A DNA stretch of 64,000 bases from Candidatus Polarisedimenticolaceae bacterium (GTDB lineage: Bacteria; Acidobacteriota; Polarisedimenticolia; Polarisedimenticolales; DASRJG01): positions 12,394 through 76,393 of the forward strand of contig DASUCV010000015.1 in assembly GCA_036275915.1 (NCBI GenBank), written 5' to 3'. This document shows, piece after piece, positions 6,721-35,677 of the stretch. Below the pieces are notes generated by a model. That model made no database searches and was not told where the DNA came from. It saw only the letters and a program-made list of their open reading frames with translations. Made by a program: the position numbers and the translations under genes. How positions within the stretch are numbered: the first letter of the stretch is position 1; every line of letters begins with the position of its first letter.

Positions 6721-7026
6721 TCAGCGAGCCCAGCGGATCTTCTTTCCGGTTACGCGAGAGTGAAGCACGTCGGGATCGAGCTCGACCCCATTCGGCCACG
6801 CAATCGTGCGTGCGGCGCGGCTGACGCGGACTCTCGCGAAATAGTCTGGATCTTCCAGCGCGGCGAAGAGATTGGTGAATGGCTCGAGGAAGGGCTTCAT
6901 GTCGATCTCGCCTTCGTCCCCATTGTCGAAGCGGAGCCACAACCTGTGAGCACCGAGGGCCTTAACCGCCCGCACCGCACGCAACTCGGATTCAATCGAG
7001 CGGGGCAATTTTCTCGAGGCTTTCAT
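6721..7026 (-). CDS. DUF2442-family small protein
   Basis: The 101-aa product matches the DUF2442 pattern: V.AV.ALG.HRLWLRF.NG.EGEIDM.PFL, DP.YF..V.V and I.WPNG.ELDPD.L. Confidence 0.75.
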   Translation of the reverse strand: MKASRKLPRSIESELRAVRAVKALGAHRLWLRFDNGDEGEIDMKPFLEPFTNLFAALEDPDYFARVRVSRAARTIAWPNGVELDPDVLHSRVTGKKIRWAR

Positions 7027-7179
7027 GTCGACTCGCTCGCTCCCAGTTTCGACTGATCTCGGGCAAGGCCAATCCCGCCCGAGGAGGCACTGAGAGAGTC
7101 GCAGATCACTCGACTCCGTGGACCTCTCCCAGCCCCAAAGCCCGTTGCATCCCGTTAACGTTTGACCTTTACAATTTGT

Positions 7180-7446
7180 CCGTTCTGTCTGTGCACTTTA
7201 TGTCGCGCCCAAAACCACTCCGGTATGTAATCCATTCCTCGGTGGTTTAGGTAAACCGGCTATGCACGTGTCCGGAGTTGTTCGTAAGTGATCGCACCCC
7301 GATGGCACTCGGCTTGAAGGACCTCTGAGCGTTCGTCCGTGCTCCGTCACGCGTCTAGGAGTGAACGACTCGCGCCACCCCGATGAGTTGAACACTCCAA
7401 GCCCCGGGTCGCGTACCCCCACGCGCGACCCGGGGCTCATTTTTTA
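7180..7446 (+). ncRNA. Candidate structured 5' leader (riboswitch/attenuator) or small RNA, unclassified
   Basis: Non-coding stretch with clearly lower GC. It has nested helices (7217-7223 pairs with 7272-7278; hairpin 7244-7257) and a 10-nt direct repeat CACCCCGATG (7295-7304 and 7376-7385). It ends in a canonical terminator 24 nt before the SGNH gene start. A possible promoter is TTGCAT (7145-7150) / TACAAT (7170-7175). Confidence 0.35.
7401..7445 (+). terminator. Rho-independent terminator
   Basis: Perfect 13-bp GC-rich stem GCCCCGGGTCGCG (7401-7413) / CGCGACCCGGGGC (7424-7436), a 10-nt loop, then TCATTTTTT (T6 at 7440-7445). Confidence 0.8.
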
Positions 7447-7469
7447 TGTGGACGCGGTAGGGTTACCCC

Positions 7470-8384
7470 GTGGCAACCGATAGGCGCATCGCGAAGGCGC
7501 TCGCGACCGGCAAGACCCAGGCGCGCGAGGTCATGGCGCGGCGGGCCGACGCGTTGAAGCGGCGAGCGAAGGCGGTTCGGGCTCATCAACGACGGGCAGG
7601 TGCGCTGACGGCGCGCGACGCGGCCGGGCCCGGCGTGCTCGTCGCCGAAGGCGATTCGTGGTTCGACTATCCGCTCCTCGACATCCTGCGCGTGCTCGAC
7701 GACGACTACGGGTACGACGTCGAGTCGGTGGCGCACAAGGGAGACCCGATCGAGGCGATGGCGTACGGTGGGACGCAGCTCGACGATTTCGCGCGGCGCC
7801 TCGAAAAGGTGCACGCGCGCGGCGAGGTGCCGCGGGCGGTCCTCGTGTCGGGAGGCGGGAACGACGTCGCGGGGACGGAGTTCGCGATGCTCCTCGACCA
7901 CCAGGCGTCTCCGGTCCCCGGGCTGAACCAGCCGGTCCTCGACGGCGTCATCGATCAACGCATCCGCTTCGCGTACGTCACGATCCTGAGCCGGGTGACC
8001 GCGGTATGCCGCGCGCAGTTCGGCCGGCCGGTGCCGATCCTCGTGCACGGCTACGACTATCCGGTCCCCGATGGGCGCGGGTTCCTCGGCGGGTGGGCGT
8101 TCCTGCCTGGGCCGTGGCTGCAGCCGGGTTTTCGTCAAAAGGGGTTCGGCAACCTCGACACGACGAAGGCGATGACCAAGGCGCTCATCGAGCGGTTCGA
8201 CGCGATGATCGAGAAGATCGTCGCGTTGCCGGACTTCGCGCACGTGACGTTCGTCGATCTCCGCGGATCGCTCCCGACCGGGAGCGACTACAAGACGTGG
8301 TGGGCGAACGAGCTGCACCCCACGCACAAGGGGTTCCGGAAGATCGCGGCCAAGTTCGCGGCGACGCTCGAGGCGCTGCCCTAG
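7470..8384 (+). CDS. SGNH/GDSL-type hydrolase, apparently cytoplasmic, with a basic ~60-aa N-terminal extension
   Basis: SGNH blocks I (AEGDSWFDYP), III (SGGGNDV) and V (NELHPT) are present. No signal peptide is visible. The GTG start at 7470 is uncertain; an alternative ATG lies at 7534. Confidence 0.8.
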   Translation: MATDRRIAKALATGKTQAREVMARRADALKRRAKAVRAHQRRAGALTARDAAGPGVLVAEGDSWFDYPLLDILRVLDDDYGYDVESVAHKGDPIEAMAYGGTQLDDFARRLEKVHARGEVPRAVLVSGGGNDVAGTEFAMLLDHQASPVPGLNQPVLDGVIDQRIRFAYVTILSRVTAVCRAQFGRPVPILVHGYDYPVPDGRGFLGGWAFLPGPWLQPGFRQKGFGNLDTTKAMTKALIERFDAMIEKIVALPDFAHVTFVDLRGSLPTGSDYKTWWANELHPTHKGFRKIAAKFAATLEALP

Positions 8385-10919: not shown

Positions 10920-13900
10920 CTACGGCGCGCACGTCAGATTCGCCGCCGGCTGCGGCGCGCCTTGCGAGTTGTAGCCGCTCGCGCTTTCCTGGCAGAGATC
11001 GTAGCTCGTCACCAGGTAGTACGACGATCCGGCGGCGGGCGTGATCTGGACGGAGCGGCGGCCGGCCGAAGCGGGGGGCGTCTGCTGGCACGCCTTCGCG
11101 CCGTGCGAGTACCACGCGCCGAGCGACCCTTCGTAGACGTTGTAGCCGCCCACCTGGCCGCCGAGGTCCTGGAACGAGATCGAGAGATCGCTCCCCACCT
11201 TGTCGACGCTGAGCGGTGACGCCGAGGCGGACGACGAGACCTCGGGCGGCGCGGCGCTCGACGTGGGCGGGAGCGCATAGGTGATCGTGAGCACGGGGCC
11301 GAACTGCTTCAGCTCGTCCTCGCTCGCCCGGAACTTCGTCTCCTGCTGAGCACCGGCCGCGAGCTGGAGCGCGTAGCCGTAGTCGTTCGCGGGATGGGCG
11401 AGCCAGAAGCGGAACGCATCGAGGACACCGGCGCCGCCGAGGACCGCCGGACTCACGATCGAGCCCATCGTGACGACGGCGTCCGGATCGAACGCGGTGT
11501 CGCGCGCGCCGAAGTAGTCGGCCGTCGACGTTCCGTTGACGCCGGCGGCGCGCGCGGCGGCGTTCGGCTGGTTCCACGCCTTCACGTTGAACTCGCTGTC
11601 GCGGTACGTCGCGCCGCCGTGCCCGTTCGTCGGGTTCACCGGGTTCTGCGTTTGATCGGGGCCGCCGTAGTCCCACCAGCGCTGGAGCACGCGCCGCGCC
11701 TCGACCGTCTGCGCATCGCCCCAGAACGGCGCCAGCGCGACGCTCGCGGCGGTCAGGCTCGATGGATTCGAGACTCCGGTCGCAGCGAAGGCGTTCTCCC
11801 ATTCGAAGCGGACGAAGTCGGTGTTCCTCTGCGTGCCGCCGTTGTTCGAGCGGAGCCAGACGGAGCCGTTCGCGCCGGCGACGCTGCCGTACACCGTTCC
11901 GGAGTCGTGCACGGGGACGGTGAAGTTCTCGTACCCTGACGCGCCGAAGGTCACGGTGAGCGTGTCGCCGACGACGAATGTCTTCGCGTTCTGCGGATCG
12001 CTGACGTCGAGGAGGTTCGCGACCCCGCCGCTCGCGCGGTCGGCGACATCGGCGATCGGCCCCAGCGGAACGAGCTGATAGGTCGCGGGGCCGCAGTCGT
12101 GATGCAGGCCGGCGACGGTGAACGTGATGCGATCGCCGTTCTGCGGGTCGAGGACCGCGCCGGTGATCGCGACGTCGGCGCCGCCGACCGCGTGCAGGCG
12201 CCACGCGGCCGGGCTCGCGGCGGCGGCATTCACGCTCTCGCTGAGCCACGCGTCGACGCGTGTCAACGACGCCGGCTCGACTCGCACGACGCGCGGCGGC
12301 GCCGTGTCCAGGGCGGCTCTCGCCTCGGCGGCGGTCGTCGTCCCGTCGATCGAGGCGACGAACTCCGCGAGATCGACGAGCTGGCGGTTCGTGAGCCCGC
12401 CGGGCGTTCCATGAGGCTGCGTGCGCCCCGGCGTGCGGAAATCGATCATCGCCTCGAGGAGCGTCTCGGCGTCCTTGGGCTTCGCGACCCCGACGTACGG
12501 CGGCGAATCGAAGGCGCCGAGAAGCGACGGCGTGTTGACGCCCCACAGCGGCGCCCGCGTGTTCAGCTCCGCCTCTCCGGCGTCATGCCGCTGCCCGACG
12601 TCGTGGAACGTGAAGTCGGTCCATCCGGTCTCGGGGACGTGGCAGGTGGCGCACTTGCCGTCGGCCGGCTTCCCGCCATTCCCCATGAAGAAGGTCGCGC
12701 CGCGGATCGCCGCCTCGGAGAGCGTGCCGTCGGGGTTGCGGTGCGGGCTGTGCGCGAGCGCCGGGAGGTTCAGGCAATAGGTCGCGAGGTCGTCGAGGTC
12801 GGCGCTCCGCCCGGCGTTCGGCGGCCCGAGCGGCGGCTGGAGCTGGGCCGCGGGGATGTAGCCGGTTCCTCCCATCTGGATGCCGCGGAAGGTGTGGTCG
12901 AAGTCCTGGACCTCGTCGCGATCGCCCGAGCGGTGGAGCTGGCCGAGGCCGGTCGCCGGGTCGATCCCGCCGAACGACGCGCCGAGGCCGAGGATCGACT
13001 GCGTCTGCCGAGGCCCGTGCGCGCCCGGCAGGAACTGGAGATCCCACTGACGGCCATCCTCTTCTCCGTAGATGTGGCACGAGCCGCACGCCACCTTGCG
13101 ATTCGACGACGCGCGCGGATCGACGGCCCCGTGGAACACGCGCTCGCCGTTCAGGAACGATGCCGAGAGCGGCTCGGGGGTCCCCGGCGTCACCGCGATC
13201 CGCTTCAGCTCGACAGGCGACGACCAGGTCGTGACGTCGACCTTCGAGACGTCGCGCGAGAGGAGGTTCGCGACGTAGGCGATCTGCTTGCCGCCGATCG
13301 CGACCGGAGCCAGCGCAATGCCGGTCGGGCGGCGGCCGACGCCGACGGCGACCGGATGCGGTGCGACGCCGTCGTCGTACGCCGGCGTCGTCGCCGGCAT
13401 GACGAGGAGGTTCTCGCTCAGCTCGCCCACCATGAAGACGGTGGCACCGTCACCGGTGAACGCGAGATCGGCGGGGCCCGAGACCGGCATGTTCCAGCCG
13501 GGGCCGATCCACGCGGAGGTCGCCGGGTCGTGGACCTGCATCGCCGTCACGATGACCTTGTCGGTGATCGTGTTCGGGATGCGCCGCGTCGTGAGGTCGA
13601 TCTGCCGGAAGACCGCCTGGATGATCGAGTCGGGCGTGATCACGGTCTGGTTGCGGTTCGAGTACTGCGTCGCGACCCAGACCCTCGTCGTCCCCGGCCG
13701 CTGCGCCAACCCGCCGCGGAAGTTGAGGTAACCGCCCTCGGCGACGTTGTGCGCGGGGATGGGATCGTGGAGCGAGGCGTTGTCTTGCGGCCCCGCGCCG
13801 TCGGTGCGCTCCTCGGTCGTCACGCGCGGCGTGCCGCCCGAGACGTCGATCCGGCTCACGCGCGGAAGGCGATCCATGACGTGGAGGTGCGTCACCCACG

Positions 13901-19185: not shown

Positions 19186-20421
19186 ATGAGTCACGACACC
19201 GCACCTCGACGCGTCTTCGTCTCCGGGATCGGCGCGATCACGCCCTACGGGCTGGGTGTCGACGCGCTGAAGGACGGCCTCTACGCGGGGCGTTCGGCGA
19301 TCGGCCCCATCACCGCCTTCGACGCGTCGCGCTTCCAGACGCGGTTCGGCGGCGAGCTGCCGGCGACGCCGCTCGCCGAGCACTTCGACGCGCGCGACCT
19401 GCCGTGGCTCTCGTCGCTTACGGCGCACGGGGTCATCGCGGCGCGTCTCGCGCTCGCGGACGCCGGCATCACGAACGGCGCGATGGGCGGCGCGGGGGTG
19501 ATCTTCGGCTCGGGCTTCGGCACGATCGCGGAGGCGGGCCCACATTTCCTGAAGTGGGCGGAGGTCGGCGACACGGCATCGCGGCCGACGACGATTCCCT
19601 CCCTCATGCTGAACGCCCCCGCGGCGCAGATCGCGATCTACCTGGGGCTCACGGGGCCCTCCCTCATGGTGTCGACCGCATGCAGCTCCGGCAGCCACGC
19701 GATCGGCCAGGCGTACCGCGAGATCCGCGAGGGACGGCGCGAAGCGATGGTCGCCGGGGGCGGCGAACACGCGCTCACCGAGCTCATGCTCCTCTCATGG
19801 TCACGCCTGCGCGTGCTCTCTCGGCGGAACGACGAGCCGGCACGCGCGTGCCGTCCGTTCGATACGGACCGCGACGGCCTCGTGCTCGCCGACGCGGTCG
19901 TCCTCCTCGTGCTGGAATCCGAGGCCTCGCTGGCCGCACGCGGCGGGCGCGCGCTCGCCGAGATCGCGGGGTACGCGAGCAACTGCGACGCGTCGCACCT
20001 CACCGCCCCGAACCAGGCGACCGAGGTGCTCGCGATCCGTGAGGCGCTCGTCGACGCCGGGTCCGAGCCGGGCGACGTCGATCTCGTCGTCGCGCACGGC
20101 ACCGCGACGCGCCTCAACGACCGCACGGAAGGCCACGCGCTCCGCGAGGTGTTCGGCGACAACGGCGCTTTCCCGGTCGTCACCGCGCCGAAATCGATGC
20201 TCGGCCACGCCATGGGCGCGTCGGGCGCGCTCGGCGTCGCCGCCGGGGTCTTCGCGCTGCAATCGGGGAAGGTCACCCCGACGACCAATCTCGACCACCT
20301 GGACCCCGACTGCGGCATCCCCATGCCACCGGCGACCGCGGAAGCGATCGACCCCGAGGTCGCCATCGTCGACGCCTTCGCCTTCGGCGGCCACAACGCC
20401 GTCGTCGTGCTGAAGAAATAA
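19186..20421 (+). CDS. fabF: Beta-ketoacyl-ACP synthase II family enzyme
   Basis: Cys-His-His catalytic triad contexts are present: STACSSGSHAIG, VAHGTATRLND and KSMLGHAMGASG. 411 aa. No other fab genes are adjacent. Confidence 0.9.
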   Translation: MSHDTAPRRVFVSGIGAITPYGLGVDALKDGLYAGRSAIGPITAFDASRFQTRFGGELPATPLAEHFDARDLPWLSSLTAHGVIAARLALADAGITNGAMGGAGVIFGSGFGTIAEAGPHFLKWAEVGDTASRPTTIPSLMLNAPAAQIAIYLGLTGPSLMVSTACSSGSHAIGQAYREIREGRREAMVAGGGEHALTELMLLSWSRLRVLSRRNDEPARACRPFDTDRDGLVLADAVVLLVLESEASLAARGGRALAEIAGYASNCDASHLTAPNQATEVLAIREALVDAGSEPGDVDLVVAHGTATRLNDRTEGHALREVFGDNGAFPVVTAPKSMLGHAMGASGALGVAAGVFALQSGKVTPTTNLDHLDPDCGIPMPPATAEAIDPEVAIVDAFAFGGHNAVVVLKK

Positions 20422-20473
20422 GAGGGGACAGCTTCCGAAACTCGAACTGCAGAGTTTCGGAAGCTGTCCCCTC
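20422..20473. repeat. Perfect 22-bp-stem hairpin (GGGGACA-family palindromic element), probable bidirectional terminator
   Basis: GAGGGGACAGCTTCCGAAACTC (20422-20443), an 8-nt loop, then the exact reverse complement (20452-20473). It lies between convergent genes. Confidence 0.8.
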
Positions 20474-35268: not shown

Positions 35269-35335
35269 AGTAGAAGCGTGTGGTCGCAACTCTCGACGCC
35301 GGAGCCCGTAAGAAGATAGTGACGGAGGCACACCG

Positions 35336-35677
35336 ATGCGTAGATCCTGGCAGGGGCTCGTTCCGGCGTTGGTGATCGGGTTCGGAATCGTCGCCGCGAC
35401 GTTCGTGGCGAAGCACGCCGCCGACTGGGGGATCACCGTTCTCGTGGCGCCGGCGGTCCTCGGTACCATCACCCTGATCGCGGACGCGCTCGCGGGGCGC
35501 CGCCGCCCATCGCTCGGCGCGTGGATTCTCGCCGCCACGTGCATCTTCGTGAGCTTGATCGTCGGGCCCGAGGCACCTCGTGTGGCGGAGTCGATGCCGC
35601 TCATCGGCACCGTCACCTGGCTCACCCTCCTCCTGCCGAACAGCCGCCCGCAGCCGTGCTCACCGCCGCGCTCCTGA
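35336..35677 (+). CDS. Small membrane protein (3-4 TM), hypothetical
   Basis: Hydrophobic segments throughout. There is no family recognition, and the C-terminus overlaps the next predicted gene. Confidence 0.5.
   Translation: MRRSWQGLVPALVIGFGIVAATFVAKHAADWGITVLVAPAVLGTITLIADALAGRRRPSLGAWILAATCIFVSLIVGPEAPRVAESMPLIGTVTWLTLLLPNSRPQPCSPPRS

Follow-up and report, generated by a model that had tools for sequence, protein, structure and literature searches.

A candidate sigma-54-type promoter and a predicted short conserved RNA upstream of an SGNH hydrolase gene in Polarisedimenticolaceae

The stretch of DNA analysed here, hereafter the window, comprises 64,000 nucleotides (nt) of contig DASUCV010000015.1 (GenBank assembly GCA_036275915.1, forward strand positions 12,394 to 76,393) from a Candidatus Polarisedimenticolaceae bacterium of the phylum Acidobacteriota. 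One of its intergenic gaps, flanked by two divergent genes for a DUF2442 protein (minus strand) and an SGNH/GDSL hydrolase (plus strand), carries a conserved element that we read as a small RNA gene together with its control region (7225-7445). According to this reading, a sigma-54 (RpoN) promoter at 7303-7317 would drive the RNA with the help of an enhancer-binding activator, which would bind rigidly spaced upstream blocks at about -104 and -61/-51. Transcription would run from near 7329 to a terminator of 15 bp. The resulting RNA, about 117 nt long, would act in trans, with its 5' segment and/or its C-rich loops pairing with the G-rich ribosome-binding regions of messenger RNAs. Those polymerases that fail to stop at the terminator would transcribe the SGNH gene, which would in this way be co-regulated with the RNA. 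We give this complete model a probability of roughly 0.55. The narrower proposition of a short transcript made from a sigma-54 promoter we consider likely with good confidence. The best-supported classification is a new, lineage-restricted small RNA family that is absent from Rfam, sigma-54-driven small RNA genes being already known as a kind.

The element was compared across related loci. Full-length homologs of the SGNH protein occur in many phyla at 50-60% identity, and a protein database search also recovered closer homologs at 63-83% identity. The contigs of these closer homologs are syntenic, with dehydrogenase subunits, a MOSC protein, a gap of about 300 nt, the SGNH gene, an opposite-strand membrane protein gene and asparagine synthase. 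Six lineages carry the element, namely the window, L089/L094/L095, L083, L082, L090 and, in part, L097. A scan of a metagenome collection with two invariant blocks returned three more true copies and six chance matches in coding sequence, and the element is therefore rare. It was confined to one locus, one bacterial family and one gene and synteny; viral contigs and plasmids gave no match, and the covariance model of the 3' module (R1) found no second copy within the window.

Within the poorly conserved part of the gap, one block is invariant, CTGGCACC-N4-CTTGCG, and it fits the sigma-54 consensus TGGCAC-N5-TTGC. A perfect TGGCAC-N5-TTGC is present in every homolog that reaches the site (L082, L083-L086, L089, L090/L091, L094, L095 and L097, representing five lineages), with N5 spacers that differ from one homolog to another (CACGA, CGCGC, CCTGC, CGGGC and CCTAC). 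The window copy, TGGCAC-TCGGC-TTGA on the plus strand at 7303-7317, retains the -24 GG and has GA in place of GC at -12; it is the sole such match on either strand of the 64-kb window. Among 92 loci without the promoter block, a single perfect TGGCAC-N5-TTGC was found. Scoring was carried out with a ten-position core matrix built from the Salmonella sigma-54 sites of PMC3844500. The homologs score 17.6 and the window site 14.7, and the known sites, which were experimentally bound in Salmonella, score 11.8-18.2. Only 2 of 1.26 million background positions reached a core score of 17, and apart from the site at 7303-7317 nothing in the window scores 12 or more. The spacing downstream of the core is equally constrained. 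Exactly 13 nt lie between TTGC and the conserved block GTTCGTCCGTG (GTTCG) in six lineages, the sequence of this gap being otherwise variable, and a start 12 nt after the -12 position would fall at window position 7329, where near-invariant sequence begins. RpoN is encoded in all three of the Acidobacteria genomes surveyed in PMC3372290.

Analysis of conservation along the element points in the same direction. Identity to the window is 86-94% in the 3' module (65% in L090), 47-69% in the 5' part and 50-61% at the four-fold degenerate sites of the SGNH gene. Expressed as the mean majority fraction of each segment, conservation is 0.91 in upstream block A, 0.54 in the variable palindrome that follows, 0.91 in block B and 0.65 in the variable stretch beyond it; it is then 1.00 in the -24 element, 0.67 in the N5 spacer, 0.96 in the -12 element and 0.56 from -11 to -1, and from the predicted start onward it is 0.93 (+1 to +29), reaching 1.00 in the loop of the hairpin termed P4. 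Counts of invariant columns behave likewise: 6 of 6 in the -24 element, none of the 5 spacer columns, 3 of 4 in the -12 element, 1 of 11 from -11 to -1, and 17 of 29 from +1. Both promoter elements are thus under purifying selection, with a free spacer and a fixed geometry to the predicted start. Islands of conservation at fixed spacing, with free sequence of fixed length between them, look like a promoter with activator sites and unlike a folded aptamer.

Two of these islands lie upstream of the promoter. Block A, TGTAATCCATTCC (7226-7238, plus strand), is situated about -104 from the predicted start and is invariant in 8 of its 13 columns across six lineages; it is a candidate site for an enhancer-binding protein. 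The distance from its TGTAA to TGGCAC is 77-78 nt (75 nt in L090). Block B, TGTCCG-N4-TGTTCG (7269-7284, plus strand), is a direct repeat with copies at about -61 and -51, a spacing of one helical turn, and 12 of its 16 columns are invariant. Its two hexamers stand 35 and 25 nt from TGGCAC, with 34 and 24 nt in the window and 33 and 23 nt in L090, and judging from sequence it is a candidate site for a regulator or for the IHF region. Jointly the upstream motif reads TGTAATCC...TGTCCG-N4-TGTTCG. The pentamer GTYCG occurs four times, at about -61, -51, +3 and +7 (7269-7284 and 7331-7339, as TGTCCG, TGTTCG and GTTCG-TCCG), which may point to a shared motif for protein binding or may be coincidental. 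Between blocks A and B, positions 7239-7268 and their equivalents in L082, L083, L089, L090 and L097 hold a lineage-specific palindrome of constant overall length. The window's version is the hairpin GGTTT-AGGT-AAACC (7244-7257, plus strand), which an earlier note on this DNA, drawn up from the letters alone, had listed as a structural feature of a leader RNA. This hairpin is indeed present. In the other lineages its place is taken by palindromes that differ in sequence, and the per-sequence fold z-score there is about 0.

An alternative is that the dehydrogenase-MOSC operon has the conserved RNA as its 3' untranslated region and terminator, perhaps processed into a small RNA, and that TGGCAC-N5-TTGC acts as RNA. 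The arrangement in four lineages favors this proposal, the element in L082, L083, L090 and L097 having the same strand as MOSC and beginning 40-90 nt beyond its stop codon, with no intervening terminator, and the covarying palindromes upstream of the proposed promoter also suggest that the region may be transcribed. Against it, the element is intact in the window and in L089/L094 despite a minus-strand cassette that separates it from MOSC. Moreover, the two blocks spell out the -24 and -12 elements with exact spacing, for which we estimate a chance probability of roughly 1e-5, and conservation between blocks falls to background while lengths stay fixed. We therefore judge the operon-tail explanation improbable. 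The proposed sigma-54 promoter would account for the four MOSC-adjacent lineages, in which no sigma-70 promoter is visible between MOSC and the element.

The predicted RNA itself (7329-7445, plus strand, about 117 nt, with a predicted start and an end at the terminator) consists of three parts. The first is the conserved 5' segment GCGUUCGUCCGUGCUCCGUCACGCGUCUA (7329-7357), beginning at the predicted start (about 7329, +/-2); over these 29 nt conservation is 93%, predicted folds leave most of them unpaired, and they constitute a candidate seed together with the invariant P4 loop. The second is hairpin P4 (7358-7398), which has an invariant C-rich loop region GCGCCACCCCGAUG and the hexaloop CCACCC at 7375-7380; all 9 of its loop columns are invariant (CCACCCCGA). 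Three P4 pairs are changed on both sides, and 92-94% of cells are paired. The third is the intrinsic terminator (7400-7445), with loop GUACCCCC, also C-rich (ACCCCCAC). The earlier note had reported a 13-bp stem here, and the terminator proved stronger than claimed, with 15 pairs at 7400-7437 and T6 at 7440-7445; the GTG at 7470 follows at a distance of 24 nt. In L090 the stem is rebuilt by four compensatory pairs while the loop A-CCCC-AC is kept. For P4 and the terminator jointly, 96% of cells are paired and 7 pairs are changed on both sides, a result that none of 500 shuffles reached; sliding the partners by 1-3 columns as a control left about 26-43% paired. Folding agrees with these comparisons. 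The 3' 92 nt (7355-7446) have z = -10.6, with one structure making up 75% of the ensemble, and the whole predicted RNA gives z = -4.2 to -6.7. Four of five lineages (window, L089, L083 and L082) are predicted to share the three-part fold, the single-sequence fold of L090 giving the terminator alone. In these modelled folds the RNA has the anatomy of base-pairing small RNAs, with a conserved 5' end, C-rich loops and a strong terminator that carries a U tail. As a discrete transcript, the RNA has an observed terminator and a predicted promoter.

No known family accounts for this RNA. Nothing in Rfam 15 matches at gathering score anywhere in the window; at E<=10 on 6900-7700, and in seven homolog loci, partial matches to the terminator stem were the only ones. 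This agrees with the earlier note, which could place the region in no riboswitch class known to it. That note had nevertheless favored a riboswitch or attenuator, and the corresponding rival is a metabolite-responsive RNA of about 265-290 nt that starts from a sigma-70-like promoter at 7145-7175 and controls SGNH by a terminator/antiterminator switch. The terminator just before the start codon and a whole-region fold of z = -3.2 speak for such a switch. The fold signal, however, comes wholly from the 3' hairpins, and the 5' 178 nt (7180-7357) fold no better than shuffles (z = +0.70), so that the description of the region as structured holds for 7355-7446 and fails for the supposed aptamer. RNAalifold found no consistent 5' helices, and no consistent secondary structure could be derived for the 5' and central part. 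The 7-bp helix 7217-7223/7272-7278, said to close the structure, is present in the window as a repeat, but pairing of its counterparts in five homologous sequences from four lineages is no better than in shuffles, and a three-way 5' domain was dropped as unconserved. Covariation in the homologous loci, which the note had proposed as a check, supports P4 and the terminator and leaves this helix unconserved. The sigma-70-like promoter is missing from four of the six lineages, there is no Rfam match and no consistent antiterminator, and the element, restricted to a single locus of one bacterial family, shows no recurrent association with the SGNH family across lineages. Taken together, these results make a metabolite riboswitch very improbable. 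The note's own fallback, a stand-alone small RNA, was the better reading, although the RNA predicted here has about 117 rather than about 265 nt and a start set by the sigma-54 site at 7303-7317 rather than by 7145-7175. Because the RNA would start from the promoter at 7303-7317, most of the supposed leader would be promoter and upstream-activator DNA.

Two observations on the composition of the region, low GC content and the lack of a credible open reading frame (ORF), were borne out. GC content is 0.46-0.63 over 7100-7450 against about 0.67-0.75 in the flanks. The ORFs that cross the region encode 80 amino acids (aa) on the minus strand (7198-7440) and 40 aa on the plus strand (7361-7483). 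Open frames of 40-90 codons also cross it in several lineages, and the DUF4160 deletion just upstream might suggest that the region is a small-protein gene or a decayed gene such as a remnant of the DUF4160 cassette. However, open frames are expected at this GC content, the most conserved blocks contain indels of +1 (L083), +1 (L097) and -3 nt (L090), and the substitutions in the stems are compensatory. In addition, the cassette remnant ends near 7050 and lineages free of the cassette keep the element. We regard a coding or decayed-gene origin as barely credible. Gene calling based on third-position GC was crude and too noisy, and it was left unused.

The relation of the RNA to SGNH expression deserves separate treatment. 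The SGNH gene has a Shine-Dalgarno-like UAGGGU and a GTG start (7458-7472, plus strand); TAGGGT is found in all homologs and the start aligns with the ATG of the relatives. The distance from the U-tract to the SGNH start codon is 23-36 nt in every lineage. The layout to which the earlier note pointed still stands: no promoter space is left between terminator and gene, so SGNH must be fed by read-through, regulated or not; from the sequence arrangement, we conclude that SGNH is probably expressed by read-through of the terminator. The same geometry raises the leading alternative, in which the sigma-54 transcript is mainly a cis-acting SGNH leader and an RNA-binding protein at the 5' segment or the P4 loop sets terminator read-through. 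Besides the constant distance, its merits are that the 3' neighbor (SGNH) stays the same while the 5' neighbor switches between MOSC and the DUF cassette, and that the invariant loops could be protein-binding sites. This arrangement has a precedent in the Klebsiella nasF leader, where a sigma-54 promoter is followed by an upstream hairpin and a factor-independent terminator, and NasR brings about antitermination with no alternative antiterminator helix. The layout of promoter, hairpin, terminator and structural gene is the same as that proposed for the element. The loops of the element, in contrast, do not fit the ANTAR hexaloop pattern, and the element is unlinked to SGNH outside one clade.

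Further results weigh against a leader that acts mainly in cis. The element was missing upstream at 90 other loci, the majority with SGNH homologs. A nhmmer search revealed nothing like the intergenic region in 80 distant SGNH-homolog loci, and nhmmer together with the R1 covariance model gave no significant hit in these 80 loci plus 10 others (best E = 0.15). No neighbor gene is common to the window and any of the 80 loci, and in the 40 best-matching SGNH loci a T-run upstream of the gene was seen in few cases. The element is also lacking in the non-syntenic L092, L103 and L104 and in the syntenic L102, whose SGNH protein is 63% identical and whose gene has the same DUF4160/DUF2442 upstream and the same membrane gene downstream, and whose spacer is only 111 nt long. 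Since L102 lacks the element, the SGNH gene does not need it. There is likewise no conserved antiterminator, although a protein-dependent mechanism would need none, Rfam offers no match, and regulated terminators do not usually have a stem as strong as this perfect GC helix of 15 bp. We consider it unlikely, though worth serious attention, that the transcript acts mainly in cis.

Several cis mechanisms were modelled and rejected. An antiterminator formed by the 5' segment and the 5' arm of the terminator was plausible in local folds, but full-length nascent folds were inconsistent and equal to shuffles. The terminator/antiterminator alternatives that the earlier note had suggested modelling failed in the same way. 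With the start proposed in that note, the pairing partner of the 5' arm changes from lineage to lineage, and with the sigma-54 start the arm pairs with the 5' segment no more strongly than in shuffled sequences (fraction at or below the observed value, 0.47-0.91). GUAAUCC (7228-7234) could pair in cis with the ribosome-binding sequence GGGUUAC of SGNH, a helix that has 7 bp in the window and L083 and, as compared by eye, uncompensated mismatches in L089, L090 and L082. A type III toxin-antitoxin locus (repeat RNA, terminator, toxin) was likewise dropped, there being no tandem repeats and no conservation of the first copy of the 10-nt direct repeat. The 10-nt direct repeat that had been pointed out at 7295-7304 and 7376-7385 is real, and its copy at 7376-7385, within the P4 loop, is conserved; the copy at 7295-7304 is specific to the window. 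It is also conceivable that the element combines two functions, a sigma-54-gated trans-acting small RNA and a terminator that, under the control of a protein or signal, gates the promoterless SGNH gene. We think this doubtful; if true, the element would have domesticated a mobile hydrolase, as a control module specific to its lineage.

Returning to the trans-acting sigma-54 small RNA, several points count against it. Both the start near 7329 and the dependence on sigma-54 are model-based predictions. The window copy has A for C at -12; a TTGA variant of the -12 element does occur among the sigma-54 sites bound in Salmonella by chromatin immunoprecipitation, at STM0649.S, which lies upstream of a predicted sigma-54-dependent operon induced 11-fold (PMC3844500). 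Positions outside the core are unlike those of enterobacterial sites, with C/T for G after TGGCAC and G/C for A/T after TTGC. On the full 18-mer Salmonella matrix, which is uncalibrated for acidobacteria, the sites score -2.8 to 11.8, the lowest known site scoring 16.4. These low scores are due to the G/C-rich non-core positions and may reflect the 70% GC genome; the full matrix was dropped as a test because it is untransferable to a genome of this composition. No RpoN-box or GAFTGA motif, as would mark rpoN or an enhancer-binding protein gene, was found in the window or in the collected loci. The upstream blocks are direct repeats and not the dyads typical of enhancer-binding proteins, and the covarying palindrome upstream of the proposed promoter shows covariation-like behavior in supposed promoter DNA, which the model leaves unexplained. 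The covariation statistics, drawn from six lineages, are thin. The RNA is always directly upstream of SGNH, which makes cis action possible. Finally, a target search in the window yielded no target that could be named, with a mean duplex energy of -21.8 kcal/mol everywhere, energies that are uninformative because the window is GC-rich. One match in that search, at 35319-35338 in the ribosome-binding region of a 113-aa membrane-protein ORF (ATG at 35336), sets GUGACGGAG plus GCAC against GUGC-UCCGUCAC in the 5' segment of the RNA; this 9+4-nt match is unexceptional, falling in the top 6% of window sites.

Comparison with known systems places the candidate in familiar company. Both glmY and glmZ are sigma-54-dependent genes, with the sites TGGCACAATTACTGCATA and TGGCACGTTATGTGCAAT (PMC3844500). 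As proposed for the element, these GlrR-activated genes of Enterobacteriaceae combine a small RNA gene, a sigma-54 promoter, upstream activator sites and an intrinsic terminator. Unlike them, the element has an acidobacterial host, no homology to them in sequence or structure and no Rfam match; GlmY acts as a protein decoy, and we see no sign of that here. GlrR sites follow the consensus TGTC-N10-GACA, a pattern that, compared by eye, the upstream blocks of the element do not fit. Other sigma-54-dependent small RNAs are Qrr1-5 of Vibrio (LuxO), CrcZ of Pseudomonas (CbrB) and NrsZ of Pseudomonas (NtrC). These are RNAs of about 100-400 nt, made only when the enhancer-binding protein is active, and Qrr RNAs have a 5'-proximal seed followed by a terminator hairpin. 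Their sequences are unrelated to the element, and none of them is known to sit 24 nt before a promoterless gene. With respect to the loops, the C-rich motifs that RsaE/RoxS carry in duplicate pair with Shine-Dalgarno or G-rich regions (PMC6158497). The element resembles these Firmicutes RNAs in having C-rich loops, with CCACCCC in the P4 loop and ACCCCCAC in that of the terminator, which may play a comparable pairing role; phylum, promoter type and sequence all differ.

We know of almost no regulatory RNA described in the Acidobacteriota, a major but poorly cultured phylum, and of almost no exploration of sigma-54 circuits there. If the proposed reading is true, the element would be a clean example of a small RNA family absent from Rfam for which promoter type, control blocks, predicted ends and two covarying hairpins are all at hand, and it would offer a handle on a sigma-54 activator circuit in Polarisedimenticolaceae. 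It would also show a promoterless neighbor gene tied to the terminator of a small RNA. For genome scanning, the lesson is that what is taken for a structured leader of low GC content can consist largely of promoter and enhancer DNA and end in a short RNA gene.

Of the flanking genes, the DUF2442 gene (6721-7026, minus strand) is annotated as a 101-aa ORF, and the SGNH/GDSL hydrolase gene downstream (7470-8384, plus strand) encodes 304 aa that match Pfam PF13472 and PF00657. A DUF4160 gene, located 5' of DUF2442 in L089/L094/L102, is deleted in the window, with the junction at about 7049/7050 (7027-7050); 186 nt of L089 (compare L089 236-496) are missing there, and the 101-aa ORF of the window reads into the DUF4160 remnant, which ends near 7050. 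The sigma-70-like pair named in the earlier note, TTGCAT (7145-7150) and TACAAT (7170-7175) on the plus strand, exists but is weak, has a 19-nt spacer and was not called by a promoter scanner. Among the relatives it occurs only in those that bear the cassette (L089, L094 and L095), with a -10 of TGAAAT or TGAAAC, and it probably belongs to the divergent control region of the DUF4160/DUF2442 cassette, outside the conserved element. A sigma-54 promoter for the RNA would account for the finding of this pair only beside the inserted cassette. The spacer of the pair contains the 8-bp palindrome CGTTAACG (7153-7160), which is kept together with TTGCAT in L089, L094 and L095 and may be an operator of the cassette.

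The SGNH family, including its basic N-terminal stretch of about 60 aa, is scattered over many phyla at the identity given above. A protein of about 515 aa is encoded near SGNH in 14 of the 80 distant loci (L001-L080). In L103 (132-3638) SGNH comes third after a caspase-like Peptidase_C14 protein and a 512-aa protein, beside HTH and AAA_13 genes, and this neighborhood has the look of a mobile or conflict-type module. Neither PADLOC nor NCBIfam returned a family for SGNH or for the 512-aa protein, and PADLOC matches only the caspase-like protein.

The terminator of the element had been called the only textbook intrinsic terminator of the window. It is the best one in positions 1-60000, the part that was scanned, but a second candidate exists on the minus strand at 20424-20471. 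There a perfect 20-bp hairpin, GGGGACAGCTTCCGAAACTC...GAGTTTCGGAAGCTGTCCCC, is followed by TCTTATTTCT, a T-tract that is interrupted, and the site occupies the gap between ORFs ending near 20421 and 20484.

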